From positions 26,448 through 90,447 of the forward strand of contig DATHNT010000013.1 of the NCBI GenBank assembly GCA_035485715.1: a stretch of 64,000 nucleotides of DNA, in the 5' to 3' direction. Position 1 is the first letter of the stretch, and each line of letters opens with the position of its first letter. Made by a program: the position numbers and the translations under genes. Positions 4,965-59,953 of the stretch are shown in pieces. The DNA comes from Solirubrobacteraceae bacterium (GTDB taxonomy: Bacteria; Actinomycetota; Thermoleophilia; Solirubrobacterales; Solirubrobacteraceae). The notes below the pieces were generated by a model. That model was not told the DNA's origin. It saw only the letters and a program-made list of their open reading frames with translations, and did no database searches.

Positions 4965-5032
4965 ACGCGGCCGCGCGTGGGCGCGCCGTCGCGCTGGGCA
5001 GGACAAACCCTGGGCACACGCTCCCCACACGC

Positions 5033-6351: not shown

Positions 6352-6377
6352 CAACCAGCACAGGGGAGGCGATCGGA

Positions 6378-7097: not shown

Positions 7098-7099
7098 CG

Positions 7100-9619: not shown

Positions 9620-9626
9620 TACGCCG

Positions 9627-20688: not shown

Positions 20689-21924
20689 TCAGCCGGTGCT
20701 ACTGAGCTCATGCGTGGCCACCGACTGCCGCGCCCGCGCAGCGCGCCAGCCTGGCTTGGCCAGCAGCACCTGCACATCGCCGATGCGCCGCTCGGCAAAG
20801 CCGGCCTCGCAATAGGACAGGTAGAGCCTCCAGATGCGCTGGAAGCGCTCGTCATAGCCGAGCTCGGCGAGCCTGCCCAAGTTTGCCTCGAAGTTGGCGC
20901 GCCAGTGGCGCAGCGTCTGCACGTAGTGGAAGGTGATGTCCTGCAGCCCCGCGACGCGCATGTCCGTGCGCCGCTTGACGGCGCGTTCGATCACGCCCAA
21001 AGACGGTAGGCAGCCGTTCGGGAAGATGTAGGTGTTCATGAAGCTGTGCGAGGCCTTCTCGACCTCATAGGCGCGATCGTCGATCGTGATCGCCTGCAGC
21101 AGCATCGCGCCGTCGGGAGTGAGCAGCCGCGAGCAACAATCGAAGAACGTGCCGAAATGCTGCCAGCCGACAGCCTCGATCATCTCGATCGAGACGAGCT
21201 TGTCGTAGCGTCCGCGCAGGTCGCGGTAGTCCTCCAAGAGCACCTCGACCCGATCCTGCAGACCCGCGCGGCCGACGTGCGCGACGGCATGACGGTGCTG
21301 CTCGCGCGAGATCGTGGTTGTGGTGACGCGGCAGCCGCGCGTGCGCGCGGCATACAACGCGAACGCACCCCAGCCGCTGCCGATCTCGAGCACATGGTCA
21401 TCGGGCCGTAGGTCGAGCTTCTCGCAGACACGCTCGAGCTTGGCAAGCGCCGCCTCGTGCAGGCTCATACCCGGTCGCTCGAACAGGGCGCATGAATAGG
21501 TCATGCTCGGGTCGAGCAGCAGCTCGAACAGCTCGTTGCCGAGGTCGTAGTGGGCGGCGATGTCGCGGCGGCGACGGCGGCGCGTATTGGCGTTCAGCAG
21601 CATGCGTGCGCGTTGCGCTGGAGCCAGCAGCGGCGCGAGCACAGCGCGCAAGCGGTCGAGCGCGTCGGCGTTGCGAGCGGCGACGCGTACGACGGCGGTC
21701 GGGTCAGACGAATCCCACAGCTCCTGGGCATACGCCTCGGCGAGCCCGTTGCTGCCACGCAACAGCTTGCGCCAAGCACGCGGCGAGCGCACGTGCACGG
21801 TCGCGTGCGGCGCGCCGCTGCCGAACGTCACCTGTGCCCGACCGTCCTCGAGCACGGTGAGGCTGCCCGAATGGATGCGCCTCAACAATGCGTGCGCGAT
21901 CGTGCGTGCGATTCGCGTTGTCAT
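20689..21924 (-). CDS. cfa: Cyclopropane/methyl fatty-acyl-phospholipid synthase family SAM methyltransferase
   Basis: IAAHYDLGNELF, MTYSCALF, LEIGSGWG, SIEMIEAVG, YIFPNGCLP, YCEAGF. Confidence 0.9.
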   Translation of the reverse strand: MTTRIARTIAHALLRRIHSGSLTVLEDGRAQVTFGSGAPHATVHVRSPRAWRKLLRGSNGLAEAYAQELWDSSDPTAVVRVAARNADALDRLRAVLAPLLAPAQRARMLLNANTRRRRRRDIAAHYDLGNELFELLLDPSMTYSCALFERPGMSLHEAALAKLERVCEKLDLRPDDHVLEIGSGWGAFALYAARTRGCRVTTTTISREQHRHAVAHVGRAGLQDRVEVLLEDYRDLRGRYDKLVSIEMIEAVGWQHFGTFFDCCSRLLTPDGAMLLQAITIDDRAYEVEKASHSFMNTYIFPNGCLPSLGVIERAVKRRTDMRVAGLQDITFHYVQTLRHWRANFEANLGRLAELGYDERFQRIWRLYLSYCEAGFAERRIGDVQVLLAKPGWRAARARQSVATHELSSTG

Positions 21925-21961
21925 GCCACGCCTCCAGAGATCGGCGATGCGAGGCGCGCGC

Positions 21962-22732
21962 TCATGCGAGGCCTTCCTTGGGATGGCGATGCACCGGCAC
22001 GCCCTTCAACTTCAGCCGCAGAGCCTGGGCGTAGATCAGCGTGAGCATCCGCAGCGAGCTGGCCGGATAGCGCGCGCTCATGCGCGCAAGCGTGGTCTTC
22101 GTGAACTCATGTCGACGCAGCGAGAGCGTGGCGTCGAACGCCAGGTCTCCTTTACGAGAGCTCGCGATGTGCACCGACAACGTCTCGCCCGGCACGCTCA
22201 CACGCCACTCGTAGCGCTCGTCCATGCCCATGAACGGCGAGACGTGCAAAGCCTTGGCCGAATTGCCGGCGAGCACCGCGCCGGAAGTTTGGGCGGGTGG
22301 GCAGTACCCGCCGCCACGTGCGAGCACGTAGGCGTGGCGCTCGCCCCAGGGCGTGTTCGTCACCTCGGCGGCCACCGCCTCCACCGACTCGGCGGCCTCG
22401 TCCATGCAGTAGTAGAAGCTGACGGGGTTGAAGCAGTGCCCAAAGCTGCTCAGGTTGCAGAGCACGCGGACCGGCCCGGACGGCCGCACGCCGGCCTGGT
22501 CGGCCACGACGTCGCGCACCGCATCTGCCAGTGGCGTGTGCTTGTCACCCAGATAGTGGCGACGACGGAAGCGCGCGGGCCCGGGGCGGGACGCGAGCAG
22601 CCGGCCACCGAGCAGCGTGGGCAGCTCGTCGAGATCGATATAGGCCAACGCGAGTCGATAGCGGAACTCGTGCTCGCGCACATCGAAGCGCCGGTGTCGA
22701 ACGTGGCCATAGTAGATAGCGCTCACACTCAT
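21962..22732 (-). CDS. DUF1365 family protein
   Basis: GHVRHRR, FNPVSFYYC, EVTNTPWGERHAY, KALHVSPF. ATG 22732 overlaps the upstream stop (ATGA). Confidence 0.9.
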   Translation of the reverse strand: MSVSAIYYGHVRHRRFDVREHEFRYRLALAYIDLDELPTLLGGRLLASRPGPARFRRRHYLGDKHTPLADAVRDVVADQAGVRPSGPVRVLCNLSSFGHCFNPVSFYYCMDEAAESVEAVAAEVTNTPWGERHAYVLARGGGYCPPAQTSGAVLAGNSAKALHVSPFMGMDERYEWRVSVPGETLSVHIASSRKGDLAFDATLSLRRHEFTKTTLARMSARYPASSLRMLTLIYAQALRLKLKGVPVHRHPKEGLA

Positions 22733-23973
22733 AGCTCTACCCCGAAATGTGCGCCCACATCGAGCGCGCTGCGCACGCCGTCCTCGTGAAAGCCCCAACC
22801 CCAGTAGGCGCCGCAGTAGTGCGTGCGATTGCGTCCACTGATCTCCGCGCGGCGGGCCTGCACACGTACGCCCTCCGGCGTGTAGACCGGATGGGCGTAG
22901 GGAATCGTGCGGATCACCTGCTGGGGATCGATCGCCGCTGTCCGGTTGAGCGTCACACACAGCTCACGATCGGCTTTCAGCGACTGCAGACGATTCATGT
23001 GGTAGGTGACGGTGGCGCGCTCGGTTGGGGTCTCCAACAGGTGGTAGTTCCAGCTCGCCCAGGCGCGGCGGCGGCGGGGAAGCAGGCGCGTGTCGGTGTG
23101 GAGCACTGCCTCGTTGGCCTGGTAGGGCATCGCCCCTAGGATTTCGTGCTCGCGTGGGTCGGCATCGGCAAGCATCGCAAGCGCCTGGTCCGAGTGGGTC
23201 GCGATCACGACCTCGTCGAAACGCTCTGCCTCGCCACCGCGAGGCTTGACCATGACCGCGTCGTCTCGACGTTCGATCGCCTGCACCGCCGTGCCGAGCC
23301 GCAGGCGATGGCGCCACGGCTGGATGAGCGCACGCACGTAGCTCTCAGAGCCACCCGTGACCGTGCGCCAGTGCGGTCGGCCCGTCAACCCGAGCATCCC
23401 GTGGTTGTCGAAGAACTCGGCGAGGAAGCGTGCCGGAAAGCTGCGCAGCTGATGGGGGTCAGCCGACCACACGGCCGACACCTGGGGAACAATCAGCCTT
23501 TGCACAAATGCCTCTGAGAAGCGCTGCTCGGCCAGCCATTGCCCCAGCGAGATCTCGCCGCAGGAGCCACCCAGGAGCTCGCGGGCCGTGCGGTTGAAAC
23601 GCACGAGGTCGGCGATCATGCGATGGAACCATGGCGTCAGCAGGTGAGCACGCTTTGCGAACAGGCCGTTCGGCGAGGCGCTGTTGTACTCGAAGTCCCC
23701 GCGCCCATCGCTCACGCCGAAGCTCATGTCCGAGCGTTGCCAGGCCACGCCGAGCTGACGCAACAGACGCTCGAAGTTTGGGTAGTTGCGGTCGTTGAAC
23801 ACCATGAAGCCGGTGTCCACCCTGTGGGTCTGCTCGGGCGTCTCCACGCGGATCGTGTTGGCGTGGCCGCCGGCAGACTCGCCGGCCTCGAACACGACGA
23901 TCTCGTGTCTGGGATAGAGCAGGTGTGCCGCGACCATGCCCGAGACCCCGGCGCCGACGATCGCGATCCTCAT
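22729..23973 (-). CDS. FAD-dependent oxidoreductase (cfa-associated amine-oxidase-like/desaturase)
   Basis: IAIVGAGVSG, GGHANT, VDTGFMVFNDRNYPNF, YAHP, GAYWGWGFHEDG. Confidence 0.92.
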   Translation of the reverse strand: MRIAIVGAGVSGMVAAHLLYPRHEIVVFEAGESAGGHANTIRVETPEQTHRVDTGFMVFNDRNYPNFERLLRQLGVAWQRSDMSFGVSDGRGDFEYNSASPNGLFAKRAHLLTPWFHRMIADLVRFNRTARELLGGSCGEISLGQWLAEQRFSEAFVQRLIVPQVSAVWSADPHQLRSFPARFLAEFFDNHGMLGLTGRPHWRTVTGGSESYVRALIQPWRHRLRLGTAVQAIERRDDAVMVKPRGGEAERFDEVVIATHSDQALAMLADADPREHEILGAMPYQANEAVLHTDTRLLPRRRRAWASWNYHLLETPTERATVTYHMNRLQSLKADRELCVTLNRTAAIDPQQVIRTIPYAHPVYTPEGVRVQARRAEISGRNRTHYCGAYWGWGFHEDGVRSALDVGAHFGVEL

Positions 23974-28824: not shown

Positions 28825-29940
28825 TTACTTCGGCGGGAAGAGTTCGAATTCGTTGATGGAGACGCTGCCCGGGTTCGCGGCTGTCGAGGTAGCCGGGGCC
28901 TTGGCCAGCCACAGCAGGATGTAGCGGTAGCCCTTGCCTTTGGTCTTCAACTTGAGCGTGGTGCTTTTCTTCTTCAAGACTTTCAGCCCGACGATGCGAG
29001 CCCAGGCCGGATCGGAGATCGACGCCGGCGGCGTACTGCCGTTCGTTCCATAGACTTCCACGGTGATTCCCGTGGTCGTCGTCTTGACGACAGTGCTTCC
29101 CAGCTTCTGCGGGTTCTTCAGGTCGAGCAGCAGTCCCTCGGCCATCTTGGGAGCGTTTTCGGTCTGTACCTGGGCCGTCCAAGCGGTGCTCGCTTCCCCG
29201 TCGATCGCGAGGCTGGGATCGCCGAACAGCGAAGGCGGGTAGTTGTAAGGGTTGTAGACGCTGGCCGCGTTCGTGTCGAGCAGGATCGGGCTCGGCGCTT
29301 CGGATTCGGCGCCTGTGTTCGTTTCGGAGCTGCTTGTTTCTTTGCTTTCGCTCGTGCTTTTCGTCGGTTCGCTGGTGGTTTTGGTCGGTTCGCTCGTGGT
29401 ATCGGTGGTTTTCGTTTCGGGCGGGAACAGCGCGTTGTTGGCTTCGCTGTCCGCGCCGCTCGTCGATTTGGGCGTCGGCGTTTGCAGAGGGATCTTCGGC
29501 GGGGTGGCTTTGACCGTCGTGGGCGTGCCCGGAACCGGGGTGGCACCAGGAGTCGAGGCGGCGCCCGGAGTCGTCGGCGTGGTTGTGGCGGGCACACCCG
29601 CTGCCGGAGTTTTTATGACCAGTGCCACAGCCGAGGACTTCGGCTTGGTCTTGTTCAATGCTGCGTACGCAGCCACCGCAGCGCCGCAAACGAGCACCGC
29701 TGTCGCCCCAAGGATCGCGATGCCCGTGCGCCAGCCCGGACCGCCGCCGAAAAGGCGTGGCTTGGCTGTGCCGCACTGCAGACACCAGTCCTGGCCCTCC
29801 TGCATCGGCAGCCCACATTTCGAGCACTGATAAGGCGCAGGAGCCGGGTCGGGCTGGGACCCGTTTGGGTCGATACCATTGGACTTCGCCGACTGCTCCG
29901 GCGAGCCCTCAGACCCTGGCTTCGTAAGCAAGGAACTCAC
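28825..29940 (-). CDS. Zinc-ribbon + TM + Thr/Pro/Ser linker + discoidin (F5/8)-like extracellular domain protein
   Basis: CSKC-x10-CLQC, one TM helix, low-complexity linker; C-terminus AIDG..TAW...GLLLDL...RYILLW..SINEFEL. Confidence 0.75.
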   Translation of the reverse strand: MSSLLTKPGSEGSPEQSAKSNGIDPNGSQPDPAPAPYQCSKCGLPMQEGQDWCLQCGTAKPRLFGGGPGWRTGIAILGATAVLVCGAAVAAYAALNKTKPKSSAVALVIKTPAAGVPATTTPTTPGAASTPGATPVPGTPTTVKATPPKIPLQTPTPKSTSGADSEANNALFPPETKTTDTTSEPTKTTSEPTKSTSESKETSSSETNTGAESEAPSPILLDTNAASVYNPYNYPPSLFGDPSLAIDGEASTAWTAQVQTENAPKMAEGLLLDLKNPQKLGSTVVKTTTTGITVEVYGTNGSTPPASISDPAWARIVGLKVLKKKSTTLKLKTKGKGYRYILLWLAKAPATSTAANPGSVSINEFELFPPK

Positions 29941-29969: not shown

Positions 29970-30950
29970 TCAACCTGCCGGCAGGATCTGTTTGTCGGTT
30001 GGCTGCATCCGCTCGTCCAGCTCCAGCTGCCAGTAGTAGCGCGTGAATGTGACCTCACGGCGATACTCGCCGACGTGCGAGGGCACGTGCTCGCCGGCGG
30101 CCATGCGCACGATCAGCTCGGGGTAGGAGCGGCCGGACAGGGCTGCCAACGCCGGCGCAGGGAAAGCTCCGCCGAAGCGCGTGTTGACATCGGTGATGCG
30201 CACGCCCAACTCCGGGTCGCGGAACACCTGGATCGTGGCGGGACCGCGCACCGCGAGCGCCTGCATCGCACTGCAACCCAACTCGACGAGCTCGGGGTCG
30301 TCGATCACGGTGCCCTTGATCGACTCGCCGCCACGCGACTCGAGCATCGTGCGCGGAATCGCGTTCAGGCAACGCCCATCCAGATCGCCGAGACAGTCGA
30401 TCGAGAGCTCCGGGCCTCCCATTGCCTGCTGCACCATAGTGGGCTCATCCACGTAGTCCACAAAGAAGCGAGCCTGCTCCGGGCTGTGCGCGAGATGGAT
30501 CGAGCGTGCGCCGGAGCCCTTCCGCGGCTTGACCATGACCGGATAGTGGAGGGCATCGAGGTCGTCATCGGGCAGCACCGTCGGAGGCGACGGCAGGCCG
30601 AGGCGCTCGAGCAGCAAATGCGCCTCGTACTTGTCGTAGGTGGCATGCGCCACCTGCGAGGAGGGGACGAGCGCCGGAAGCAGGCCCTGCTCACGCGCCA
30701 GCGCGAGCGTCTCGATGTCGAGGTCTGTCAGCGGCAGCACTGCGCCTACTCCGTATTCGGCGCATAGGCGTGCAAGCTCGGGCACATAGCCCGGGTCTGC
30801 GATCGGTGGCGGACTGACACGCACCTGCGCCGCGTACCGAGCAGGAGCCAGCGGGTTTGGGTCGACCGCTACCACTGTCGTAAGAGCGGCGAAGCAGGAA
30901 ACGATGTCGTAGCGCTTGCCGACGCCCGTGAGCATGATGCTCGGGGTCAT
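29970..30950 (-). CDS. ATP-grasp domain protein (polysaccharide-locus type)
   Basis: DKYEAH, YPVMVKPRKGSGA, QQAMGGPELSID, DVNTRFGGAFP. ATGA overlap with upstream gene. Confidence 0.88.
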   Translation of the reverse strand: MTPSIMLTGVGKRYDIVSCFAALTTVVAVDPNPLAPARYAAQVRVSPPPIADPGYVPELARLCAEYGVGAVLPLTDLDIETLALAREQGLLPALVPSSQVAHATYDKYEAHLLLERLGLPSPPTVLPDDDLDALHYPVMVKPRKGSGARSIHLAHSPEQARFFVDYVDEPTMVQQAMGGPELSIDCLGDLDGRCLNAIPRTMLESRGGESIKGTVIDDPELVELGCSAMQALAVRGPATIQVFRDPELGVRITDVNTRFGGAFPAPALAALSGRSYPELIVRMAAGEHVPSHVGEYRREVTFTRYYWQLELDERMQPTDKQILPAG

Positions 30951-31531
30951 TCCCATCCTCCCGTCTGGCCCTTGTAGAGACCCGAGCCACCGAGCACGAT
31001 CGCTACGGTGCGCCACAGGATACGTGCGTCGAGCGCGAGCGATCGGTGTTCGATGTAGTAGAGGTCGAGCTCGATGCGCTCGCTCCAGGGCAGCGCGGCA
31101 CGGCCGTTGACCTGGGCCCAGCCGGTGATGCCAGGCCTGATCGCAAGCCGGCCGCGCTGGCGCTCTGTGTAGCGGGCCACCTGCACCGGGATCGTTGGGC
31201 GCGGGCCGATGAACGACAGCTCGCCGCGCACCACGCCCAGCAGGTTGGGCAGCTCATCCAGCGAAGTCCGACGCAAGAGGGCCCCAACGCGCGTGACTCG
31301 AGGGTCGTTCTCGTTGATCGCTAGGCCCGCGCCCACGTGCTCGGCACCATCGACCATCGTGCGCAGCTTGAGCAGGTCGAACTCTTGACCGTCCTTGCCG
31401 ACGCGCCGTTGACGGTAGATCGGGTGCCCGCGCGACTCCAGCCTGATGGCGAGCATCGCTACCGCGATCACGGGCGCGGCCACGATCAGCGCGAGCGTGC
31501 CGAGGACGATGTCGATCGTGCGTCGGATCAT
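30947..31531 (-). CDS. Bacterial sugar transferase (polyprenyl-phosphate phosphoglycosyl transferase, PglC/WcaJ C-domain)
   Basis: RRTIDI, KLRTM, NDPRVT, RTSLDELP, SFIGPRP, PGITGWAQVNGR, DLYYI. Confidence 0.93.
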   Translation of the reverse strand: MIRRTIDIVLGTLALIVAAPVIAVAMLAIRLESRGHPIYRQRRVGKDGQEFDLLKLRTMVDGAEHVGAGLAINENDPRVTRVGALLRRTSLDELPNLLGVVRGELSFIGPRPTIPVQVARYTERQRGRLAIRPGITGWAQVNGRAALPWSERIELDLYYIEHRSLALDARILWRTVAIVLGGSGLYKGQTGGWE

Positions 31532-32703
31532 CTGGTCCCCTCCGCCGCTTCCCACGAAGGGGCAGTGCCATGGCGTAGCCAATCCCACAGGCCGGCGGCG
31601 GCGGCGAGCGTCGTGAGGAAGTAGTAGCGCGCGATCAAAAGGGGCCGCACACGTATCAAACCGCCAATCCCGGCGGAGGCGCCGAGGACGACCTGGAGGA
31701 TAAGGGTGATTTCATAGACGCCTCTGGTCCCGCCCGCCACGAGCGCAATGTTGGCGAGGAAGGCAAAGACGTGCAAAAAAGGGGTCAGGTAGCGCAAAAG
31801 CCGGTGGGAGAAGATCATCCCGGCGTAGCCGAAGGTGTAGCCGTGCGGGGAAAGCATGCCACCGCGCAGGACGATCGGCCACGTGTGGCTCATCATGCGC
31901 CGCTTGCGCCGCCACTCGCCCTCGATCGAGGGGACCATCTTCTCGGTGGCACGGGCGCTCGACACGTATACGGCGCGCCAGCCGCGCTTGACCATGTTGA
32001 ACGGGAACGACAGGTCGTGGCCCATGATCGGATCGACCACGATGTAGGACTCGCGACGGGTCGCGTAGATGGCGCCGTTGCCGGCGGTAATCGACGACAG
32101 GCGCGACTCGCGCGCGCGCTGCGCCATCTCATAGCGCCAGTACACACCCTCCTGGTTGGTGGCCTGGGCGCCGTCTGCGCCCTGCACGAAGCGGACCTGT
32201 CCGCAGGCGTAGCCCACTTGCGGATCCGCGAACGCGGCCACGAGCTCTCCCAGTGCATCCGGCTCCCATTGGGAATTGGCGTCGGAGAAGGCGACGATCT
32301 CCCCGCTCGATCGCTCCACAGCCGTGTCCTGAGCGACGATCTTGCCAGCGCGCGGGAGCTCGAGTACGAGGTCGGCGCCTGCGTCGCTCGCATGCTTGGC
32401 AGTGGCGTCCGTGCAGCCGTCGCAGGCCACGATCACCTGCAGCAGCTCGCGCGGATAGTGCAGCGCGAGCGCATTGGCGACCTTGGCGCCGATCACTGCC
32501 TGCTCGTCGTGCGCGGCGACGATCAACGACACGCTTCGATTTGGAGGATTGGTTCGTGCCTCTTCCCCCACCGCGGCTTTTGGCGCTGGCGCGAACAAGC
32601 GGGCCAGCACAGCCAAGGCAAAGGCATAGCCCACCTGTGTCCACACGATCAGGACAGCCGAAGCCCAGAACACGATCTCGAGCGCTGTGCGCATGAACCG
32701 CAT
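31528..32703 (-). CDS. GT2 glycosyltransferase with TM helices
   Basis: [35 protein letters not shown]; TM at both ends. Confidence 0.9.
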
Positions 32704-32721
32704 TCTGTCCGAGCGCAGACG

Positions 32722-33957
32722 CTAGCGCCGCTCCCCTGCTCCGAGGAGGAGCTCATAGAGCTCGATGTGCGCCGCCGCGATTGCCTTCCAGGAGTAACGT
32801 CCATTGGCGGCTGCCCTGGCCCTCACGCACATTTCGGTCAGGGCGGCCTCATCGGCCAACATCTCTCTCAAGGCCTTCCCGAGCGCACGGGGATCGCCCG
32901 CCTCTACGATCCTCGCAGCACCGGTGCTCTGTATCTCGGGGAAACCGCCGACGTCGCTCAGCAGCAGCGGCTTGCCGAACGCGAGCGCCGTGAACAGGAC
33001 GCCCGACTGGTCGGCCTGCAGGTAGGGCAGCACCACCAGGTCGGCTCGTTCGAAATAGGCGGGCAGCTCCTCGTCGGTCACGAAGTGCGGGTCGAAGCTC
33101 ACGTTTGCTGGCGCGTCTGCCCGCAGTCCTGAGATGTCCATGCGCGGCATGCCCGCGATCAAGAGCTCGGCGTCCTCGATCGGCTCCTCGCCCGCTGCCC
33201 CACGCCAGGCGTCCAGCAGCACGTCGATGCCCTTGTAGGGACGCATCAGGCCGAACATGAGCACGGTTGGGCGCTTGGCCTTGGCTTGGGCGCTTTCAAA
33301 AACGGGTCCCCCCCCGCGCGCACGGGGGGCATCGTCTTTTTCGGATGTCCCGACCTCCGCGTCCAGCCCAGTCATCCCCGCCTGCCGCTCCCCAGAGATC
33401 CCCGGAGCAAGGTGCGTGAACACGCCGTGTGGGATCACATGGACGCGCTCGCCGTCGGCGCCCAGCTCGTCGATCAGGCGCTCGCGACCGTGCTCTGAGT
33501 GCACCACTATCGCGTCGAAGCGGTCGTACAGACGCTTCTGCGCGGACAGCTGGCCAGGCCGGGGCTCACGTGGGAGCACGTCGTGGGCGGTCAGCACCAG
33601 TGGACGACGGCGCCCGTCCGCTGTACGTCTCGCCGGCAGCAGACGGCCGTCGAGATGTTGCACCGCCAGCCACTGGAAATGGACTACGTCTGCCGACCGA
33701 GCCGCGTGGCGGTAGCGCAACATGTCCGGTACGTGCTGGGCAAGCTTGCTGAGCATGCGCACACGTCCACCTGGGGCGCCCAGCGCGGCTCGGTAGAAGA
33801 ACTCGTGGCGCACGTACCCATTGGGTTGCGCGACAGGCCCGTAGGGGAAGCGACTGGTGAACAACACCACCTCTGTGTCTGCTACCGCCAGCGCATCGCA
33901 GAGCGCATGGTCGTAGGGTGGTGTGTAGGAGGAGGGGTCGACGACGTGAACGCGCAC
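32722..33957 (-). CDS. GT4 glycosyltransferase
   Basis: [50 protein letters not shown] start at 33957. Confidence 0.9.
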
Positions 33958-33975
33958 CGGGGAAAGACAATACGG

Positions 33976-35199
33976 ATGGCGCCGCTCAACCGTGTGGCGC
34001 TGCTTGTCACGTTCGCTCACGCCGCGTTCAGCTACTGGACGAGCGTATTCCCACGCGTCTGCTTTTACGTCGCCCGCTGGCGACGCCGCGCGCGGCGAAT
34101 ACCCGATCCCGTACTACGTCAGTTAGCACTCGACGCGCTCGACAAGCGCGGCAACATCGAGGGCGCAGCGGCTTTCGCCGCGTTCGTTCCGTTGGCCCGA
34201 CGGACCGACGTGACGAGGGCCACGAGCGCCTTCCAAGCGGCGTACAACCTGCTCGACATACTCGGCGAGCAGCCAAGCCCCGATCCGGTGCTCGACGGGC
34301 GACGACTGCACGAAGCACTGGTCTATGCGGTCACCCCGAAAGGCACCACAGCGCCGCGCGGCAGCGAAGTGGGCTCTCTCGACACGGACTCCTCCAGCGC
34401 CGATGGATGCACGACGGAGGGCGCTCGTGCACTCGACTGGTATGAGCATCATCCGCAACGCAACGACGGCGGATATCTGGACGCACTGATAGAGGAATGC
34501 CGTGACGCATTCGCGGCACTGCCCTCCCACCTCATGGCGGCGCCCTCAGCGCAGGCCGCGGCCGCTCGCATCGTCGCCTTTCAGAGCCTCAACCTGAGCA
34601 GGTCCCAGGGCGAGCACACCGGCTTGGAGCAGTGGGCGCGCGCAGCCACACCGCCCGGAACCGACTTGCAATGGTGGGAGACCGCCGCCGCGGCCGGCTC
34701 CTCGCTTGGCGTGCACGTACTGATCGCGGCCGCCGCCGGGCCGCAGCTCGAGATGGGCGAGGTCAACGTGCTGGCGCACGCCTACTTTCCTTGGATCGGC
34801 GGTTTGCACTCGCTGCTTGACAACCTGATCGACAAACACGAGGACGAGGCGGCGGGCCACCGCAGCCTGATCGAGTACTACGGCCCCGAGCAGGCCGCAC
34901 AGCGGATGAGGTGGATTGCCGAGCAGGCCCTCGAGAAGGCCGGCGGGCTGCCGCACAGCCGCCGCCACATCGTGATCTTGGCAGCGATGATCGGCAACTA
35001 TCTGGCGACGCCCGAAGCACACAGTGCCGAGCTGCAACCGATCGGCGACAGCGTGCTTGCCACGGTCAACGCGCTTCGGCGGCCGACGATGCTCGTGTTC
35101 GAGTTGCGCCGTCTACCCGCGCTGATACGGGCCAAGCTTGGGCATCCAGCCGACGATACACAGAAGCAGACAACTCCCAACGTGGACATTTTCAGATAG
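33976..35199 (+). CDS. DUF2600 family protein (YtpB/tetraprenyl-beta-curcumene-synthase-like class I terpene synthase)
   Basis: NDGGYLDALIEEC, WWETAAAAGSSLG, YFPWIGGLHSLLDNLIDKHED, SLIEYY, all typical of DUF2600. Confidence 0.85.
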   Translation: MAPLNRVALLVTFAHAAFSYWTSVFPRVCFYVARWRRRARRIPDPVLRQLALDALDKRGNIEGAAAFAAFVPLARRTDVTRATSAFQAAYNLLDILGEQPSPDPVLDGRRLHEALVYAVTPKGTTAPRGSEVGSLDTDSSSADGCTTEGARALDWYEHHPQRNDGGYLDALIEECRDAFAALPSHLMAAPSAQAAAARIVAFQSLNLSRSQGEHTGLEQWARAATPPGTDLQWWETAAAAGSSLGVHVLIAAAAGPQLEMGEVNVLAHAYFPWIGGLHSLLDNLIDKHEDEAAGHRSLIEYYGPEQAAQRMRWIAEQALEKAGGLPHSRRHIVILAAMIGNYLATPEAHSAELQPIGDSVLATVNALRRPTMLVFELRRLPALIRAKLGHPADDTQKQTTPNVDIFR

Positions 35200-35276: not shown

Positions 35277-36008
35277 ATGCTGGAGCTGCGGGATCTCGTC
35301 AAGCACTACCACACAGCCGGAGAGGAGACCGTACGCGCCGTAGACGGCGTGTCGCTATCGGTCTCCCAGGGCGAGATGGTTGCCCTTTACGGTCCGAGCG
35401 GCTCGGGTAAGACCACCCTGCTTCTGATGGTCGCCGCGCTGTTGGCGCCGACCAGCGGCAAAGTCCTGGTGAACGGCCGCGACATCTCTTCGCTCTCAGA
35501 GCGCGAGGCATCGCATTTCCGCCTCCAGGAAATGGGCTTCGTGCGTCAGAACTTCGATCTGCTGCCCGGCGTGACGGCGATCGACAACACGGTGCTCAAG
35601 CTGCTCAAGAACACCCCTTGGAAGGATGCCCACAAAAGCGTACAGCCGTTGCTCGAGCGCTTGGGACTGGGCGGGCGTCTCACGCACCGCTCCGAGACGC
35701 TCTCGATGGGCGAGCGTCAACGCGTGATGATCGCCAGGGCGCTGTCGACCGAGCCGAAGCTGCTGCTCGCCGACGAGCCAACCGGCAGCCTCGACACGCA
35801 GCGCGGGCGCGAGGTGCTCGAACTACTGACCGAGCTGTGCCGCGAACGAGGCGTGGCGATCGTGCTCGTCAGCCACGATCCCCAGGCGGCCGCATACGCC
35901 GACCGCGTACTGGCGCTGCGCGATGGCAAGCTGGTCGACTACGACCCAGACCAGGGTCTCGCGCCCACCAGCTCCGCACGCGGCGCGCACGACGACAGCG
36001 CGGCGTGA
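35277..36008 (+). CDS. ABC transporter ATP-binding protein, LolD/MacB-like (paralog of 6378-7097)
   Basis: GPSGSGKT, LSMGERQR, ADEPTGSLD, VSHD. RBS GGAG; TAGCAT -10 at 35233-35238. Confidence 0.95.
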   Translation: MLELRDLVKHYHTAGEETVRAVDGVSLSVSQGEMVALYGPSGSGKTTLLLMVAALLAPTSGKVLVNGRDISSLSEREASHFRLQEMGFVRQNFDLLPGVTAIDNTVLKLLKNTPWKDAHKSVQPLLERLGLGGRLTHRSETLSMGERQRVMIARALSTEPKLLLADEPTGSLDTQRGREVLELLTELCRERGVAIVLVSHDPQAAAYADRVLALRDGKLVDYDPDQGLAPTSSARGAHDDSAA

Positions 36009-36033: not shown

Positions 36034-38550
36034 ATGAGGTTCGCGAACGTGCTTCACCTGTACCGCGTGCGTCTGCGTGCGCGGGCCCTGCAAGAGTGCT
36101 TCGCCCTGATCGGTATCGCCGCCGGCGTAGGGCTTCTGTTCGCCTCCCAGATCGCCAGCTCAAGCCTGTCAAGCTCGGTTGGGCAGCTCAACAGCGGCAT
36201 CGTCGGCGCCGCGACTTTGCAGCTGACCGCGCGCGCGGCACAGGGCATGCCGGAAAAGCTCGTCGACGAAACTCGGCGGCTGAATGGGGTGCGGATCGCG
36301 GCTCCGCTGCTCGAAGTGAGCGCCAACGCGGTCGGGCCGAAGGGCAGCGACTCGGTGGAGCTCGTCGGCGCCGACAGCACGTTGGCCGAACTCAAGGGCG
36401 CGCTCGTGCGCAAAGTGGCGCTCACTCCTTTCGCCGGCGTAGAAGCGGTCGTGCTGCCCGCGCCCGTCGCCAAAACGCTTGGAGCCAAGAAATTCGGTGA
36501 CATCATCAAGTTTCAAGCGCTTGGGCACACGAGCGAAGCGGCGCTCTATTCACGACTTGGCGAAAAGCAGATCGGCGCTCTGATCTCCAGCCCGATCGCC
36601 ATCAGCACGCTTGAATACGTACAGAAAGCGAGCGGCTTGAACGGACGCGTGAGCCGCATCCTGGTCGAGCCCAAGCCCGGCCAGACAGCGACTGTACGAG
36701 CCGGCTTGGAACGAATCGCCCAGGGGCGCTACGGCGTGGAGTCGGCAAGCTATGACGAACAGCTGTTTGCCAAGGCGGCAGCCGCAACCAACCAGTCGAC
36801 GCAACTGTTCGCGGTCATCAGTGCGCTTGTCGGCTTCCTGTTCGCGTTCAACGCGATGTTGCTGACCGTTCCCCAACGCCGGCGCCTGATCGCCGACCTG
36901 CGCCGTGACGGCTACACGCCGAAGGCGGTGATCGCCGTGCTGATGTTCGACGCCGTCGTGCTCGGCACGATCGCCTGCGCGATCGGACTGGTGCTCGGCG
37001 ATGAGCTCTCGATCCACCTTTTCCATTCGAACCCGGGCTATCTGTCATCCGCCTTCGCGGTTGGCTCTGAGCGCGTCGTGAACTTGCAGAGCATCGTCAT
37101 CTCGATAGTCGGCGGCATGGGCGCCGCGAGCGTGGCCGTGTTGAGCCCTTTCAAGGACATCGTCTCGCGCAACCCGCTTGCCGCGATCGAAACCAAGGAA
37201 GGCACCGGCGGAAGCACCTCGCCACTACTGACCATCTTCGGACTCCTGTGCCTTGCGGCCACACTCGCGATCCTGCTTGCCGCCCCACAGGCGGCGATCG
37301 TCGGGATGGTCACGCTGATCGCGGCGTTGCTCGCACTACTGGCGATACCGCTCAGCGGCATGCTCGCACTGGTGAGACGAATAGCGCCGAGCATCGTCAG
37401 CGCCGTACCGCACATCGCCGTGATGGAGCTTCGGGCCGGGCGCTCGCGCGCGATCGCGATCGCCGCGACCGGTGCGATCGCCGTGTTCGGCAGCGTCTCG
37501 ATCCAAGGGGCACACAGCGACCTGCTGAAGGGGCTGTACAACGCGGCAAGCGACGTCAATGCTTCGACCGACGTCTGGGTGTCGGCGGCCGGCAACTCCA
37601 ACCTGCTGATGACTTCCCCCTTTACCCCGACCCAGCAGGCAAAGTTGGCCGCGCTGCCTGGGGTGCGCTCGGTCCGCATCTACCGCGGGGGCCTGCTCGA
37701 CTACAACGACCGGCGCATCTGGGTGATCGCGCCGCCCAGCGAAGCCTCGCCGCTGGTGCCGCCGACACAGCTCGTGGAAGGTAGCGTCACCCAGGCCGAC
37801 GCGCGCGTGCGCGAAGGGGGCTGGGCGGTCGTCTCGCTGGCGCTCGCCGAAGAACACAAACTGAAAATCGGCCAGTCCTTCACACTGCCGACGCCGAATC
37901 CGAGCACGTACCGCGTCGCCGCGATCAGCACCAACATCGGCTGGGCGCCAGGAGCGATCGTGATGAGTGCCGGCGACTACGCAAAGGCCTGGGGCAGCAG
38001 CGACGCAAGCGCCTACAACGTGCTGATGCAGCCTGGCGTCTCGCCCGAGCAGGGCGTGCACGAGATCAGAGCGGCCCTGGGCAGCGAAACGGCACTCGCA
38101 GCGCAGACCGCTGAAGAGCACGCCAACACACTGCGCTCGATCACGCGCCAGGGCCTTGAACGGCTCTCGCAGATCGCGACCCTGATCCTGGTGGCAGCAG
38201 TGATGGCAATGGCAGCGGCGATGGGCGCGATGATCTGGCAGCGCCGTCCACGCCTGGCCAAGCTCAAGCTCGAGGGCTTCCCCCATCGCGAACTTTGGTA
38301 CACGATCGTGCTCGAGAGCCTGATGCTGCTGGGCGTCGGCTGCTTCAGCGGAGCCGTCTTCGGTCTCTTCGGCCAGCAACTGCTCGACCGCGCCTTGAAC
38401 ATCGTCATCAACTACCCCGTCGTCAGCTCCGTCGGGGTGGTGGTGGCGCTGTCGAGCCTCGCGCTCGTCACTGCCTCCGCCGTTCTGATGGTGGCGATCC
38501 CCGGCTGGTTCGCCGCCAAGGTGCAGGCCAGCCTCGCACTCCAAGACTAG
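36034..38550 (+). CDS. FtsX-like/MacB-type double-repeat ABC permease (838 aa, paralog of 7100-9619)
   Basis: Colinear with 7100-9619, sharing blocks such as LFSV/LFAVISALVGFLFAFNAMLLTVPQRRRL and RRPRLAKLKLEG; ends LALQD. Confidence 0.92.
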   Translation: MRFANVLHLYRVRLRARALQECFALIGIAAGVGLLFASQIASSSLSSSVGQLNSGIVGAATLQLTARAAQGMPEKLVDETRRLNGVRIAAPLLEVSANAVGPKGSDSVELVGADSTLAELKGALVRKVALTPFAGVEAVVLPAPVAKTLGAKKFGDIIKFQALGHTSEAALYSRLGEKQIGALISSPIAISTLEYVQKASGLNGRVSRILVEPKPGQTATVRAGLERIAQGRYGVESASYDEQLFAKAAAATNQSTQLFAVISALVGFLFAFNAMLLTVPQRRRLIADLRRDGYTPKAVIAVLMFDAVVLGTIACAIGLVLGDELSIHLFHSNPGYLSSAFAVGSERVVNLQSIVISIVGGMGAASVAVLSPFKDIVSRNPLAAIETKEGTGGSTSPLLTIFGLLCLAATLAILLAAPQAAIVGMVTLIAALLALLAIPLSGMLALVRRIAPSIVSAVPHIAVMELRAGRSRAIAIAATGAIAVFGSVSIQGAHSDLLKGLYNAASDVNASTDVWVSAAGNSNLLMTSPFTPTQQAKLAALPGVRSVRIYRGGLLDYNDRRIWVIAPPSEASPLVPPTQLVEGSVTQADARVREGGWAVVSLALAEEHKLKIGQSFTLPTPNPSTYRVAAISTNIGWAPGAIVMSAGDYAKAWGSSDASAYNVLMQPGVSPEQGVHEIRAALGSETALAAQTAEEHANTLRSITRQGLERLSQIATLILVAAVMAMAAAMGAMIWQRRPRLAKLKLEGFPHRELWYTIVLESLMLLGVGCFSGAVFGLFGQQLLDRALNIVINYPVVSSVGVVVALSSLALVTASAVLMVAIPGWFAAKVQASLALQD

Positions 38551-38622: not shown

Positions 38623-39435
38623 CTATTTCTTGTGAGGAGTCGGCGGCGGGCAGGGGACGTTGTGCGTCGCCACCACCTGGCTGCCGTCTTGGAACGTGAA
38701 CAGCGCGGAGAACGGGAAACCACCCTTTGGACACTTCGTCGGAAGTGAGATGCCCTGCGGTTTGTAACCAACCAGTTTTCCGTGCACTCGCTTGTAGTAG
38801 GTGAGATGTTCGGGGCCGATCGTCGATTTGACGTTGATGATCGACACCGGCGGTCCGTTCGTGACACTGGGTATCTGCGGGATCGCGGTGTCGAGATCGC
38901 CGCCGAATGCGCCTTCTCCGGGAAGCAATTCGCCCGCGAAGACGATCTGCGCATATACGGGCGCAAGCCCATTGGCGTAGAACAGCACCACGATGTTGCC
39001 TTCGTGCGGTGGCCCCATCAATGCCTCGATTTCAGGAATCTCCCGGCCCGCACCCTCTCCAAACGGCACTTCCACGAATGCGCTGCCGAATCCCAGTCGA
39101 GAGTTGGCGGGACAGCCCGCGATGCCTTTCGCCACCAGCGCTTCGGGCTTGCAGATTGCCAGCCCAAGGGTGGTCGTGACGTAGTTCATGCCCTTGGGCA
39201 TCCGCAAGCTGACGTGAGTCAGCGGCGAAGGTAGCCCGCCTGTCGTACTACCGATCGTGAAGCCGAAGCCGATCGTTGTCGAGGCGCCCAACTTCTCGGG
39301 CGTGAACGACGTCTGCAAGGCGACCGTCTCAGCTGCCTGCGCCGATGCGGAGATCCCGCACAGCACAAGTAGGCAGCTGAGAGCAAGCGGCCCAAGCACG
39401 AGGGCGCGAGCCCTGCGTATCCGCGCTCTGGACAA
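38623..39435 (-). CDS. Secreted 4-Cys beta-rich protein of unknown function (paralog 3)
   Basis: GGAGG RBS, signal ending AQA; PEKLGA, C-x12-CP, YYKRVHGK, CPKGGFPF, FQDGS, CP. Confidence 0.85.
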   Translation of the reverse strand: MSRARIRRARALVLGPLALSCLLVLCGISASAQAAETVALQTSFTPEKLGASTTIGFGFTIGSTTGGLPSPLTHVSLRMPKGMNYVTTTLGLAICKPEALVAKGIAGCPANSRLGFGSAFVEVPFGEGAGREIPEIEALMGPPHEGNIVVLFYANGLAPVYAQIVFAGELLPGEGAFGGDLDTAIPQIPSVTNGPPVSIINVKSTIGPEHLTYYKRVHGKLVGYKPQGISLPTKCPKGGFPFSALFTFQDGSQVVATHNVPCPPPTPHKK

Positions 39436-39449
39436 GATGCCTCCGCTCG

Positions 39450-39956
39450 CTAATACGACATGGGTCCGCTCACGTGCACCGTGACGGCGTCGTTTGAGCG
39501 CTGGATGGTGCCGCTGAAGCTGAGAGCCGAGGCTTTCGCTTTCGAGTAGGTACCACTGCCTTTGGTGATCGTCATCGTGCCCGAGAACGACGCGGTCGAG
39601 CCGGCCACGTGGTAGCTCGCTTTGGCGTCACCGCTGATCGAGCCGCCTTTGGGATAGACCTGCACCTGCGCGGTCACGCTGCGGGTCGAGGTGACGTCGA
39701 GCTGCAGGTAGAGCTTGCCGCTCAGCGAGCCTTTCGCCGTGCCACCCTCTTTGAGCACGAGCCCGTGTTTGTTTTCCAGGTGCAGGCTGGCGCTGTCGTT
39801 CAAGTCGAGCGTGCGCGCAGCTGTCGCATGCGGCGCCGCAGCACCGGCTCCGGCCGTGCCGAAGGCCGCAGCTGTCGCGGCAGCGCCGAGCGCAAGCGCG
39901 GCGGTTGAGATACGCATGCGAGCGGACTTGCGCTTGCGCGAAGACTGATTCCCCAT
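39450..39956 (-). CDS. Secreted small beta-barrel protein (AOC/dirigent-like, tentative), paralog 2
   Basis: GGAGGG RBS before ATG 39956; Ala-rich signal; ITKGSGTYSKAK and LSFSGTIQRSNDA shared with 5800-6351. Confidence 0.8.
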   Translation of the reverse strand: MGNQSSRKRKSARMRISTAALALGAAATAAAFGTAGAGAAAPHATAARTLDLNDSASLHLENKHGLVLKEGGTAKGSLSGKLYLQLDVTSTRSVTAQVQVYPKGGSISGDAKASYHVAGSTASFSGTMTITKGSGTYSKAKASALSFSGTIQRSNDAVTVHVSGPMSY

Positions 39957-40187
39957 CGTTCCCTCCATATGGCTGTTGATGTCGTGTCCCATTAGAACAG
40001 ACCCCTCTCCTCGGTACGACCCCCCCAAACCCAAAAGCCTAGTCCACATAGCGGAAAGGCAGTGCGGCTGGACAATTCTAGTGCATATAGGCCTACGAAG
40101 TTCAACCACTCACGCTAGCGGAAGTTGTGCATTTCCAACGCCAACCTCAGTCTGCCTCCCAAGGGATGTGCCCTAAGGTCACCCTCC

Positions 40188-45591: not shown

Positions 45592-46151
45592 GGTCCAACC
45601 AGCTTGAAGGTGTGCGGGAACGGCACCGAGCGGTCTTCTTGGTGCAGCTCCACACGCACGCTGTATTCGCCGGGCGGGGCGAGTGCCCCATGGTTGTGGG
45701 GCACCAGCGTCGTGTACCCATCGGCCTTGCGCAACACCGAATAGCCGTGTGCCGTTCCCTCACGACCATTCCAGCGCAACGACAGCGTTTTGTAGCGTCC
45801 CACCGGCAGGTCCCGCACCAGGGTGGCCACCATTTCATCAGAAGAATTTTCGACGACCACAGTCACCCGATCGGCTTTCGCGAGCTTGAAAGCGATGTGC
45901 TCTTCTCGCGATTCGCCGCCGGAGGCCGGCGCGATCACATGGGTCAGCTTCGCTTCCTGAACAAGCGTCGGGGTGTGCTTGAGCCTCTGCGTGATCAGCA
46001 GGGCCCCAAAGCAGCCAACCACGAGCAGCGTAAACACGATCCGTGCCAAGCGCTCGCCTGAGCCGCCGTCGGCCCTCCGACCTCGCGCCCCGGCCTGTGC
46101 CCCGCCTCCATCGACGGGCATCTGAGCGCCGCCGGCCCGTGCGCCGCTCAA
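45588..46151 (-). CDS. Membrane-anchored small Ig-like (FlgD_ig-like) protein
   Basis: One TM, then VTVVV..VATLVRD..SLRWNGR..PPGEYSVRV; overlaps both neighbours. Confidence 0.6.
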   Translation of the reverse strand: MSGARAGGAQMPVDGGGAQAGARGRRADGGSGERLARIVFTLLVVGCFGALLITQRLKHTPTLVQEAKLTHVIAPASGGESREEHIAFKLAKADRVTVVVENSSDEMVATLVRDLPVGRYKTLSLRWNGREGTAHGYSVLRKADGYTTLVPHNHGALAPPGEYSVRVELHQEDRSVPFPHTFKLVGP

Positions 46152-46948
46152 GCGCCGCCGTCCCGAGCGAAGCGCTCGACCGTGTCAGAACGCAGTCCCA
46201 AGCGCAGCGTCTCCAGCGAGAGCACGTCCTCGGGTGCGATGTTGCCGAGGTTGCACTCGCTTCCGAAGCGGTGCAACAGCCACACCTGCTGTTCGCGTTG
46301 CGGCGCCTCGAATATCAAGCGATCGGCGTCGATCGCATGAACGATCTCGTCGATCAGCCCGGTGCGCACCTCGCCGTCGGCACGGTAGATGCCCGCCGTG
46401 CCCGACTCACGCGCCTCGGCGATCACCTTCCAAGCGCCGGCCTCCAGGTCGCGTTCGATCTGCTCCACCCACACATAGGGAGCCATGATGAAGTCTGCGT
46501 CCTTGCTGCCCACCTCCGAGAGCACCGTGAATTCGCCTGCAAGCGTGCGAATCAGATGGGCCTTGACCTCGGGCTCGAGCGAAATCGTCCCGTCGGAGAT
46601 CTCGACGTGGCGCAGGCCCAGCTCGTGCAGCCAGGCGATCAGGCCCTCGACCCGCCCTTGCTTGATCGCGACCTCCGTGAGCGTGCCGCCGAGTACCACG
46701 GGTATCCCGTGCGACGCGTAGCGCTCGAGCTTGGGCTTCAAGTTCGCTGTCACGAGCGCCGTGCCCCAGCCGAGCTTGACGATGTCCACGCTATCGCCGA
46801 CCGTCTCGATCAGGCCGTCGACCTCGGCCACCGACAGGCCGCGATCGATCACATGTGTGATGCCGCGCTCGCGCGGCTTGGGTGAGCGCGCCGGCACATC
46901 CAGGAAACCGGCTATCGCGCGATCTGGCTCCACTTGCGGGGCGCTCAC
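46148..46948 (-). CDS. comA: Phosphosulfolactate synthase (ComA family)
   Basis: KPRERGITHVIDRG, DIVKLGWGT, VEISDGTI, SEVGSKD, VIAEARESG, IFEAP, QQVW, NLGNI. Confidence 0.93.
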   Translation of the reverse strand: MSAPQVEPDRAIAGFLDVPARSPKPRERGITHVIDRGLSVAEVDGLIETVGDSVDIVKLGWGTALVTANLKPKLERYASHGIPVVLGGTLTEVAIKQGRVEGLIAWLHELGLRHVEISDGTISLEPEVKAHLIRTLAGEFTVLSEVGSKDADFIMAPYVWVEQIERDLEAGAWKVIAEARESGTAGIYRADGEVRTGLIDEIVHAIDADRLIFEAPQREQQVWLLHRFGSECNLGNIAPEDVLSLETLRLGLRSDTVERFARDGGA

Positions 46949-58582: not shown

Positions 58583-58659
58583 GCGCGAGCACCCCCGTCC
58601 AAGCCTGTCCAAAGGCAGGCGGCGGGACCGGCGGCCGTCGGGGCGGTAAGCCGGCTCAT
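58579..58659 (-). pseudogene. 26-aa mini-ORF at the usual rodA position (possible deletion scar)
   Basis: ATG overlaps the pstP stop and its TGA overlaps the pbpA GTG; MSRLTAPTAAGPAACLWTGLDGGARA. No recognisable RodA motif. Confidence 0.35.
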
Positions 58660-59939: not shown

Positions 59940-59953
59940 CAGTGGACCACCGG

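Follow-up and report, generated by a model that had tools for sequence, protein, structure and literature searches.

A DUF2600 terpene-synthase homologue of Solirubrobacterales is conserved beside a predicted Type VII ABC transporter and two predicted secreted proteins

What does a homologue of class IB terpene synthases have to do with the exporter encoded next to it? The question arises from a stretch of 64,000 nucleotides (nt; the window, by which we mean this whole stretch) of a Solirubrobacteraceae bacterium (GCA_035485715.1, contig DATHNT010000013.1, positions 26,448 to 90,447), in which a gene for a DUF2600 protein is followed by genes for an ATP-binding cassette (ABC) ATPase and its permease. 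A first-pass annotation, made from the sequence alone, had noted a remodelled first Asp-rich motif and a low-complexity loop, and had proposed a substrate or product altered relative to tetraprenyl-beta-curcumene synthase, possibly an exported signal or a surface terpenoid. Comparison with its relatives suggests that the gene is an ordinary member of a large Solirubrobacterales branch of soil actinobacteria, and that the new element, as judged from conserved gene order, is a module uniting the putative enzyme with a transporter and secreted proteins. To our knowledge only three class IB terpene synthases have been characterized, all of them from Bacillus. The features of the locus are listed below, with residues of the DUF2600 protein counted from the ATG at 33976:

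33946 or 33976 to 35199, plus strand: DUF2600 / class IB terpene-synthase homologue, the type-1 (Asn-variant) paralogue (Pfam, match to BalTS, AlphaFold2 model)
34246 to 34269, plus strand: motif 1, NLLDILGE, residues 91-98, with N91, D94 and E98 (HMMER alignment to DYLDNLcD of BalTS)
34339 to 34419, plus strand: low-complexity insert KGTTAPRGSEVGSLDTDSSSADGCTTE, residues 122-148, 27 amino acids (aa) (insertion relative to BalTS)
34819 to 34845, plus strand: motif 2, DNLIDKHED, residues 282-290, with D282, D286, E289 and D290 (alignment to DYFIDQEED of BalTS)
35179 to 35196, plus strand: C-terminal tail NVDIFR, of the general form xDxFR, after a variable basic linker (C-termini of homologues)
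35277 to 36008, plus strand: ABC ATPase of the MacB/LolD/YtrE/YbbA type (Type VII ABC; Pfam ABC_tran, NCBIfam, PDB)
36034 to 38550, plus strand: fused double-FtsX permease, 838 aa (two Pfam FtsX stretches; hydropathy)
38623 to 39435, minus strand: unk270, predicted secreted, beta-rich, without a known family (signal peptide with AQA|AE cleavage site; synteny)
39450 to 39992, minus strand: unk219, small, predicted secreted, beta-rich, without a known family, 168-180 aa in relatives (signal peptide; synteny)

The open reading frame at 33976-35199 on the plus strand encodes 407 aa, or 417 aa if translated from a GTG at 33946. The protein scores 222.6 bits with the Pfam model PF10776 (DUF2600), whose cut-off is 25 (E=8e-66); a scan against NCBIfam matched no family model. 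The sole solved relative recovered by sequence is BalTS of Bacillus alcalophilus (PDB 5yo8, 6loo, 6lop; E=8e-35), in agreement with the terpene-synthase homology noticed on first reading. An AlphaFold2 model computed from an alignment of 44 diverse homologues (predicted local distance difference test, pLDDT, 90.3; predicted template modelling score 0.90) has the BalTS structures 6loo and 5yo8 as its top matches in Foldseek (template modelling score 0.88-0.89, root-mean-square deviation 2.3 Å, 27% identity; E=1.9e-18 for 6loo_A), with canonical class I synthases and prenyltransferases ranking far below. Hence, the protein is predicted to adopt the class I alpha-domain fold seen in BalTS. The glycine of the kinked G-helix, which lies near the substrate C1 (G208 of BalTS), corresponds to G241 and is invariant in our 13-sequence alignment. 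Against eight relatives, the ratio of nonsynonymous to synonymous substitution rates (dN/dS) of the core, calculated with the insert excluded, is 0.08-0.15, which points to strong purifying selection on a core that is conserved as if functional.

Downstream of this gene and on the same strand, the ATPase follows after 77 nt and the permease after a further 25 nt, so that the first-pass description of a gene directly upstream of an exporter holds; unk270 and unk219 are convergent to these three genes. No terminator-like site was found in the 77-nt gap, and a scan of the locus for promoters and terminators was otherwise uninformative. In NCBIfam the best matches of the ATPase are LolD, DevA, YbbA and MacB, all below the respective cut-offs, and in the PDB they are YtrE (7e-51), LolD (1e-48), YbbA (9e-45) and BceA (2e-38), with MacB also in the group. 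The permease has, to judge from its hydropathy profile, some ten membrane segments and, outside the cytoplasm, two stretches each of about 215 aa; among PDB sequences it matches only MacB and YtrF, both marginally. Together, the sequence affinities indicate that the ATPase and permease constitute an ABC transporter of Type VII (the MacB/FtsX or mechanotransmission type). Neither unk270 nor unk219 has a Pfam match (at E up to 10) or a PDB sequence match. An AlphaFold2 model of unk270 is poor (pLDDT 59) and all-beta, and a Foldseek search with it gave no significant fold match, only generic beta-sandwich noise. The homologues of unk219 all come from Solirubrobacteraceae and are all annotated as hypothetical.

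The pairing of DUF2600 with the transporter recurs widely among relatives. A scan of one genome per GTDB species, using patterns derived from the 13-sequence alignment, returned 303 relatives, the best 80 of which were fetched as loci; these 80 are all from metagenome-assembled genomes of Solirubrobacterales / Solirubrobacteraceae. The scan also detected two DUF2600 copies in several genomes, and the window sequence itself is found in public runs of soil and peat metagenomes, present there as contigs, with no RNA data among the runs recovered. At 76 of the 80 loci (labelled below with L and a number) the ATPase gene lies directly beside the DUF2600 gene, together with an FtsX permease gene wherever the contig reaches; over all loci the linkage to the transporter is seen in at least 85 of 92, and in related loci the permease is always beside the ATPase. 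Flanks of about 10 kb contain no detectable FtsX gene other than the adjacent one, and on this ground we reject a mere high density of transporter genes as the source of the adjacency.

Searching all fetched loci with the neighbors from the window (tblastn) revealed three cassette types. Type 1, with the order DUF2600, ABC ATPase, FtsX permease, then unk270 and unk219, is present at every locus whose DUF2600 protein is at least 58% identical and whose contig is sufficiently long, and also in L051-L067 (about 50% identity), where it occurs without polysaccharide genes. A rearranged version is seen in L072-L081, with the secreted-protein genes relocated within the cassette: in L073, L075, L077, L080 and L081 they directly precede DUF2600 on its own strand (L073 being a five-gene single-strand row with gaps of about 22 nt), and in L072 they are found downstream of the permease. 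Type 2 consists of a PadR regulator, two ABC genes, an FtsX permease (about 855 aa) and an Asp-type DUF2600 gene, often followed by an IclR regulator; it occurs in L069, L070, L078 and L082 and on contigs of distant representatives (37-49% identity, tblastn), is present twice in L083, and is combined with both secreted-protein genes in L085. In type 3 (L068, L071, L074, L079) the PadR, two ABC and FtsX genes occupy one strand and the unk219-like, unk270-like and DUF2600 genes diverge from them. Contigs of the distant representatives, whose GC content spans 58-72%, show either PadR-ABC-ABC-FtsX-DUF2600 or FtsX-DUF2600, and FtsX followed by DUF2600 is found on contigs of GC content as different as 71.6% (L090) and 57.6% (L092); this range hints at a branch broader than Solirubrobacterales. 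As the linkage is kept through three gene orders and on contigs of 58-72% GC, inheritance alone is unlikely to explain it, and the link to the exporter is stronger than the one adjacency first noticed would suggest. These contextual connections indicate a genetic coupling of DUF2600 with the Type VII ABC transporter and with the two secreted proteins. Across type-1 loci the identity of the ATPase is 76-100%, versus 46-96% for DUF2600.

Loci with complete flanks that lack the transporter are limited to L059 and L065, in which DUF2600 follows a gene similar to diacylglycerol (DAG) kinases; at L066, L076 and L091 the contig ends near one side of the gene, and the other side shows no transporter. 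The two transporter-less loci, with their lipid-kinase neighbor and no ABC or FtsX gene, would fit a synthase acting independently, which makes a C35-type lipid for membrane tuning in the manner of YtpB, the known role of the only characterized relatives, and whose adjacency to a transporter reflects co-regulation or genome history. As the linkage persists in the face of changes in gene order and base composition, we consider such an independent role unlikely. The gene order in L059 and L065 is a YegS-type lipid kinase (8895-9890 in L065), DUF2600, RelA, RecJ and SecDF, and in L074 a type-3 cassette occupies the same chromosomal site as this DUF2600 gene. Mobile or selfish elements are also seen at some cassettes: a HicAB toxin-antitoxin pair in or beside the module (L001, 17129-17547), transposase genes between the permease and unk270 (L002, 14704-16077), and a group II intron reverse transcriptase right after DUF2600 (L083, 11723-13189).

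The window carries two further cassettes related to this module:

4197 to 10346, plus strand: module without a DUF2600 gene (blastp/tblastn within the window, Pfam)
4197 to 4964 and about 5129 to 5800, plus strand: the two unk270-like genes of that module
5800 to 6351, plus strand: its unk219-like gene
6378 to 7097, plus strand: its ATPase, 81% identical to the ATPase at 35277-36008
ending at 9619, plus strand: its double-FtsX permease, 62% identical, followed by a TetR regulator
1 to 1721, minus strand: start of a type-2 cassette, with PadR at 1137-1721, an ABC gene at 406-1140 and a second ABC gene running off the window edge

The two secreted-protein genes accompany those of the transporter in cassettes of types 1 and 3, in the type-2 locus L085 and in the module devoid of DUF2600. 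Given that this last module has both of them, unk270 and unk219 appear to belong with the transporter rather than with the enzyme, and unk270 in particular is, from its signal peptide and synteny, a candidate extracytoplasmic partner of the transporter. Two contigs encoding an ABC protein identical to that at the left edge of the window show how the latter cassette continues, namely with an FtsX permease of 857 aa, a DUF2600 protein of 382 aa and IclR (L088, 8001-14576). This left-edge DUF2600 paralogue is 39% identical to the query, has the Asp-type motif 1 FDYADTLME and lacks the insert.

The paralogue bears directly on the motif that had attracted attention on first reading. The class-defining paper gives the two metal-binding motifs as DYLDNLxD and DY(F,L,W)IDxxED, and also names the NSE motif of class I synthases (PMC5939612); the form of motif 1 that the first-pass annotation had given for YtpB-like proteins agrees with it. 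In the query, motif 1 does differ from this form, NLLDILGE in place of DYLDNLxD: the central Asp is kept, the first Asp of the literal motif is replaced by Asn and the last by Glu. Motif 2, which had been taken as intact, does retain all four acidic residues, and departs from the Bacillus form in having Asn for Tyr (Ser in the branch consensus). In the model, motif 1 lies at the C-terminal end of the helix 73-97, and motif 2 at the end of the helix 260-285 and in the helix 287-292. Five of the six acidic ligands are retained, and the sixth position is Asn. There is precedent for Asn as a Mg2+ ligand, a part that it plays in the NSE motif of class I synthases.

To place these differences we searched 1.84 billion cluster representatives with HMMER, obtaining 1163 relatives, and aligned 131 of the best 150 (each at least 300 aa, 38-66% identity), motif 1 being alignable in 129. 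Position 94 is Asp and position 98 is Glu in 129 of 129; position 91 is Asp in 72, Asn in 52 (of the 131 representatives) and another residue in 5. Conservation of motif 2 among the 131 is 121 for D282, 125 for D286, 92 for E289 and 125 for D290, resulting in a branch signature of (D/N)-Y-(L/V/A)-D-x-(L/V)-x-E and L-L-D-(S/N/H/Q)-(L/V)-(V/I)-D-x-x-E-D. The 120 closest homologues (61-100% identity) all read YN[LFYMV]LD[MIL][LI]GEQ and [LMF][LM]DNLIDK[HR]EDE. Hence, within the branch Glu appears to be universal and Asn a common alternative to Asp, and motif 1 is not remodelled in comparison to the protein's own relatives. The family alignment that the first-pass annotation called for thus returns the N/E variant as the norm of the branch, largely undoing the notion of a gene-specific remodelling. 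The published class IB motifs were derived mainly from alignments of Firmicutes, proteobacteria and cyanobacteria (PMC5939612), and for this reason they are probably too narrow and do not exclude the DUF2600 protein. The presence of an Asp-type paralogue in the genome of the window itself suggests that Asn versus Asp is a difference between paralogue classes and not a lesion.

The low-complexity loop fares similarly. It is present, 27 aa in length, and is an insertion relative to BalTS; the significance attached to it did not survive comparison. In relatives of 62-96% identity its length varies between 0 and more than 50 aa, with unrelated sequences, and it is absent from some relatives at 65-70% identity. 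A pLDDT of about 53 in the AlphaFold2 model predicts disorder, and its dN/dS is 0.25-1.1, versus about 0.1 for the core. Since its length is not conserved, we reject a functional insertion, and the loop is probably a tolerated disordered segment under relaxed constraint and without function. The idea that motif 1 and the loop were remodelled once, in this single enzyme, to yield a new substrate or product draws on the fact that both do differ from BalTS; it is contradicted by the family alignment, with the same motif form in 120 of the 120 closest homologues and the Glu in all aligned representatives, and by the loop's lack of conservation at 65-70% identity, and we regard it as very improbable.

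A different consequence of the Asn would be that the type-1 protein does not catalyze at all, and serves instead as a polyprenyl-diphosphate adaptor or sensor for the transporter, with the Asp-type paralogue 35-40 kb away as the actual enzyme. In BalTS, mutation of any of the six Asp residues, or removal of Mg2+, abolishes activity (PMC5939612), and later work from the same group specifies these mutants as Ala variants (PMC11234867). The intolerance of BalTS to Ala at the first position of motif 1, the occurrence of Asn there in every type-1 copy and the retention of an Asp-type copy in the same genome would all be accommodated by such a binder, as would a docking role for the conserved C-terminal tail. 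The tail, which ends in NVDIFR, DLDSFR, LDNFR or VDNFG among the 120 closest homologues, is predicted to be disordered (pLDDT below 50 for the last 11 residues, 397-407). In B. subtilis YtpB, ring formation is controlled by a C-terminal extension (PMC5939612); by analogy, the xDxFR tail could either cap the active site, as proposed for the C-terminus of YtpB, or dock onto a partner. On the other hand, the five remaining acidic ligands and the kink glycine are kept, Asn is able to ligate Mg2+, and the free alternation of Asn and Asp in the branch (52 versus 72 representatives) suggests that the two are interchangeable, making a non-catalytic role quite improbable.

In light of these observations, we propose that the DUF2600 protein is a working class IB synthase and that the transporter acts on a lipid tied to its reaction, with export of the product as the favored form; we would give this proposal a probability of roughly 0.4. 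Under it, we infer catalysis, the substrate and the identity of the transporter's cargo with the enzyme product as follows. At the inner membrane face, a metal set with (D/N)-x-x-D-x-x-x-E on a first helix and D-x-x-x-D-x-x-E-D on a second would bind Mg2+ along with a long-chain polyprenyl diphosphate of all-trans configuration. The enzyme would then ionize the diphosphate to give a very hydrophobic terpene hydrocarbon, C25 or larger and possibly linear or with one ring, which the Type VII transporter would pull from the membrane, much as LolCDE and YbbAP do with their hydrophobic cargo, and pass to the secreted partners or to the cell surface. Export is favored here because Type VII systems handle hydrophobic cargo in conjunction with outside partners, as when YbbAP-TesA draws hydrophobic molecules out of the membrane and supplies them to a periplasmic partner (PMC12646458), and because the product of YtpB arrives at the surface of B. 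subtilis spores (PMC11708026). A bolder version, in which the enzyme, the transporter and the two secreted beta-proteins form a new Solirubrobacterales pathway for terpene synthesis, mechanical extraction and delivery to the envelope, with Asn- and Asp-type cassettes serving different lipids, is possible but doubtful; it would amount to a terpenoid counterpart of the Lol and YbbAP-TesA systems.

Several points weigh against this proposal. The nearly identical modules without DUF2600 imply that the transporter is independent of the enzyme and probably has other or broader cargo. With their PadR and TetR regulators, the paralogous cassettes resemble stress response or detoxification systems more than biosynthetic export. 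Given that BalTS loses activity upon Ala substitution of any of its six Asp residues, Asn91 could weaken or change catalysis. Sequence searches with unk270 and unk219, and the model of unk270, returned no match that would point to lipid binding, and our literature search found no biochemical data for members of the branch. Finally, no gene for a polyprenyl-diphosphate synthase, a terpene cyclase or a squalene-hopene-type cyclase was found in the 64-kb window.

Some of these points fit another scenario, concerned with carrier-lipid housekeeping and envelope stress, in which a transporter akin to Bce or Ytr systems acts on polyprenyl-diphosphate intermediates or on antibiotics bound to them, and the enzyme destroys surplus competitors or those of the wrong length, with the terpene arising as a by-product rather than as what is transported. 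B. subtilis cells lacking ytpB accumulate heptaprenyl diphosphate, which is thought to compete at BceAB and so cause bacitracin sensitivity, and antibiotics that act on the cell wall induce the ytpAB operon (bioRxiv 10.1101/2024.01.17.576085). The type-2 and type-3 cassettes carry PadR along with two ATPases, the paralogous modules in the window have PadR or TetR, and the presence of several such cassettes per genome recalls Bce-type resistance modules. Likewise, the best full-length PDB match of the ATPase is YtrE, whose ABC system has the FtsX-type permease YtrF; transporter modules lacking DUF2600 would be expected if the enzyme were an accessory; and in the sub-clade of the query the module sits inside a polysaccharide locus dependent on polyprenyl phosphate, with BacA/UppP 17 kb away. 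In systems of the BceAB type, the ten-helix permease bears one large outside domain, inserted between helices 7 and 8, and a two-component system is encoded next to it. The window permease, by contrast, has two predicted outside domains and no sequence match to BceB, and neither a sensor kinase nor a response regulator is adjacent; furthermore, conserved secreted partners are foreign to Bce systems, the query's own cassette is without PadR, and irreversible destruction of carrier lipid would be costly. On balance, we view this housekeeping role as the main alternative, a tentative one and somewhat doubtful in the form stated.

The near-universal pairing with a transporter thus yields testable alternatives, terpene export versus policing of the polyprenyl-diphosphate pool for protection of the envelope. 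The latter, if true, would extend the link between ytpB, heptaprenyl diphosphate and BceAB, so far known only from B. subtilis genetics. Either outcome would provide a function for widespread and largely uncharacterized actinobacterial ABC systems with double-FtsX permeases. The branch itself is a large one among soil actinobacteria, with more than 1000 sequences detected; in short form its signature is (D/N)YxDxLxE and LLD(S/N)LxDxxED, which motif mining with the published patterns would miss.

As to the upstream end of the gene, the DUF2600 start codon is ambiguous between the GTG at 33946 and the ATG at 33976: the GTG, 30 nt upstream, is the annotated start in most relatives, in which the position of Met-1 holds Thr. 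Alternatively, the conserved stretch at 33946-33976 may represent the promoter or -10 region of a divergent and probably leaderless gene for a family 4 glycosyltransferase (GT4). DUF2600 and GT4 diverge with almost no intergenic space, the GTG of GT4 lying at 33957 on the minus strand with a TATTGT 9 nt upstream of it, which suggests leaderless transcripts for both genes, with the promoter of each inside the 5' end of the other. The genes on that side are:

29970 to 33957, minus strand: GT4, a family 2 glycosyltransferase (GT2), a priming sugar transferase (Bac_transf) and an ATP-grasp enzyme, divergent from DUF2600 (Pfam)

A second GT2, a GAF-HD protein, a Wzx flippase, a Wzy polymerase, a ComA-like enzyme, a LytR_C protein and a PglF-like dehydratase are encoded further downstream, and the domain composition of the flanking genes together indicates a surface-polysaccharide locus. 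The divergent genes at 29970-33957 adjoin DUF2600 only at identities of about 58% or more, that is, in the sub-clade of the query, and are absent in L051-L082. As their adjacency is confined to this sub-clade, whereas the ABC linkage is general, the polysaccharide locus was rejected as the primary partner of the enzyme.

Other genes of the window are noted for completeness. A ComA-type (2R)-phospho-3-sulfolactate synthase (46148-46948, minus strand; Pfam E=4.6e-87), located beside LytR_C and the PglF-like dehydratase, is unusually placed in a polysaccharide locus and may point to a sulfonated sugar or a sulfolactate decoration. At the edge of that locus, 28825-29940 (minus strand) encodes a conserved protein of 371 aa with a zinc-ribbon-like N-terminal CxxC pair, one membrane segment, a Pro/Thr-rich linker and a faint C-terminal match to the F5/8-type-C domain, and with no significant Pfam family. 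The genes at 20689-23973 (minus strand), a cyclopropane-fatty-acid-synthase-like methyltransferase, DUF1365 and a flavin amine-oxidase-like protein in a row, with LtrA and a GDSL lipase nearby, look like a set for membrane-lipid modification. The BacA/UppP undecaprenyl-diphosphate phosphatase is at 52611-53492 (plus strand), and 55203-60472 (minus strand) is a cell-wall growth cluster comprised of a PASTA kinase, a penicillin-binding transpeptidase, a PP2C phosphatase and an FHA protein.

Among known systems, the protein itself is best compared with BalTS, the beta-C25/C30/C35-prene synthase that provided the founding class IB structure, with which it shares the DUF2600 family, an all-helical fold, the motif helices, the kink glycine and a similar size. 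The differences from BalTS are the replacement of the first Asp of motif 1 by Asn and the last by Glu, with loss of the central Asn, the Asn for Tyr in motif 2, the 27-aa disordered insert, and a longer C-terminus ending in xDxFR; in addition, the source of the query is a high-GC actinobacterium, and its gene is linked to an ABC transporter. The tetraprenyl-beta-curcumene synthase of B. subtilis, YtpB (BsuTS; EC 4.2.3.130), an activity defined by heptaprenyl diphosphate as substrate, a monocyclic curcumene as product and hepST and sqhC as partner genes, belongs to the same family and likewise has a C-terminal extension beyond the end of BalTS, and it also has a genetic tie to an FtsX-type ABC system in that its substrate interferes with BceAB bacitracin resistance. 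However, the similarity is distant only, ytpB is in an operon with ytpA and not with a transporter, and the 64-kb window of the query has neither a heptaprenyl-diphosphate synthase nor an SqhC-type cyclase; hence, the name tetraprenyl-beta-curcumene synthase given to homologues by the Joint Genome Institute is an over-annotation that is not justified. A full-text literature search found no DUF2600-ABC linkage, no characterized actinobacterial DUF2600 member and no Type VII system with a terpene-synthase homologue.

The transporter, for its part, has an ATPase of the same subfamily as the Type VII systems YbbAP-TesA of E. coli, LolCDE-LolA, MacAB-TolC, FtsEX-EnvC and YtrBCDEF. Actinomycetota typically lack an outer membrane. 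All these systems have extracytoplasmic partners, and the co-conservation of the secreted proteins suggests such partners here too. Sequence searches matched neither these proteins nor the window permease to a solved member, apart from marginal hits in the case of the permease. YbbAP-TesA is the closest in layout, the window permease being, like YbbP, apparently a fused double FtsX unit with two outside domains, and a feature of the window module for which we found no counterpart described in the group is its cytoplasmic terpene-synthase homologue.

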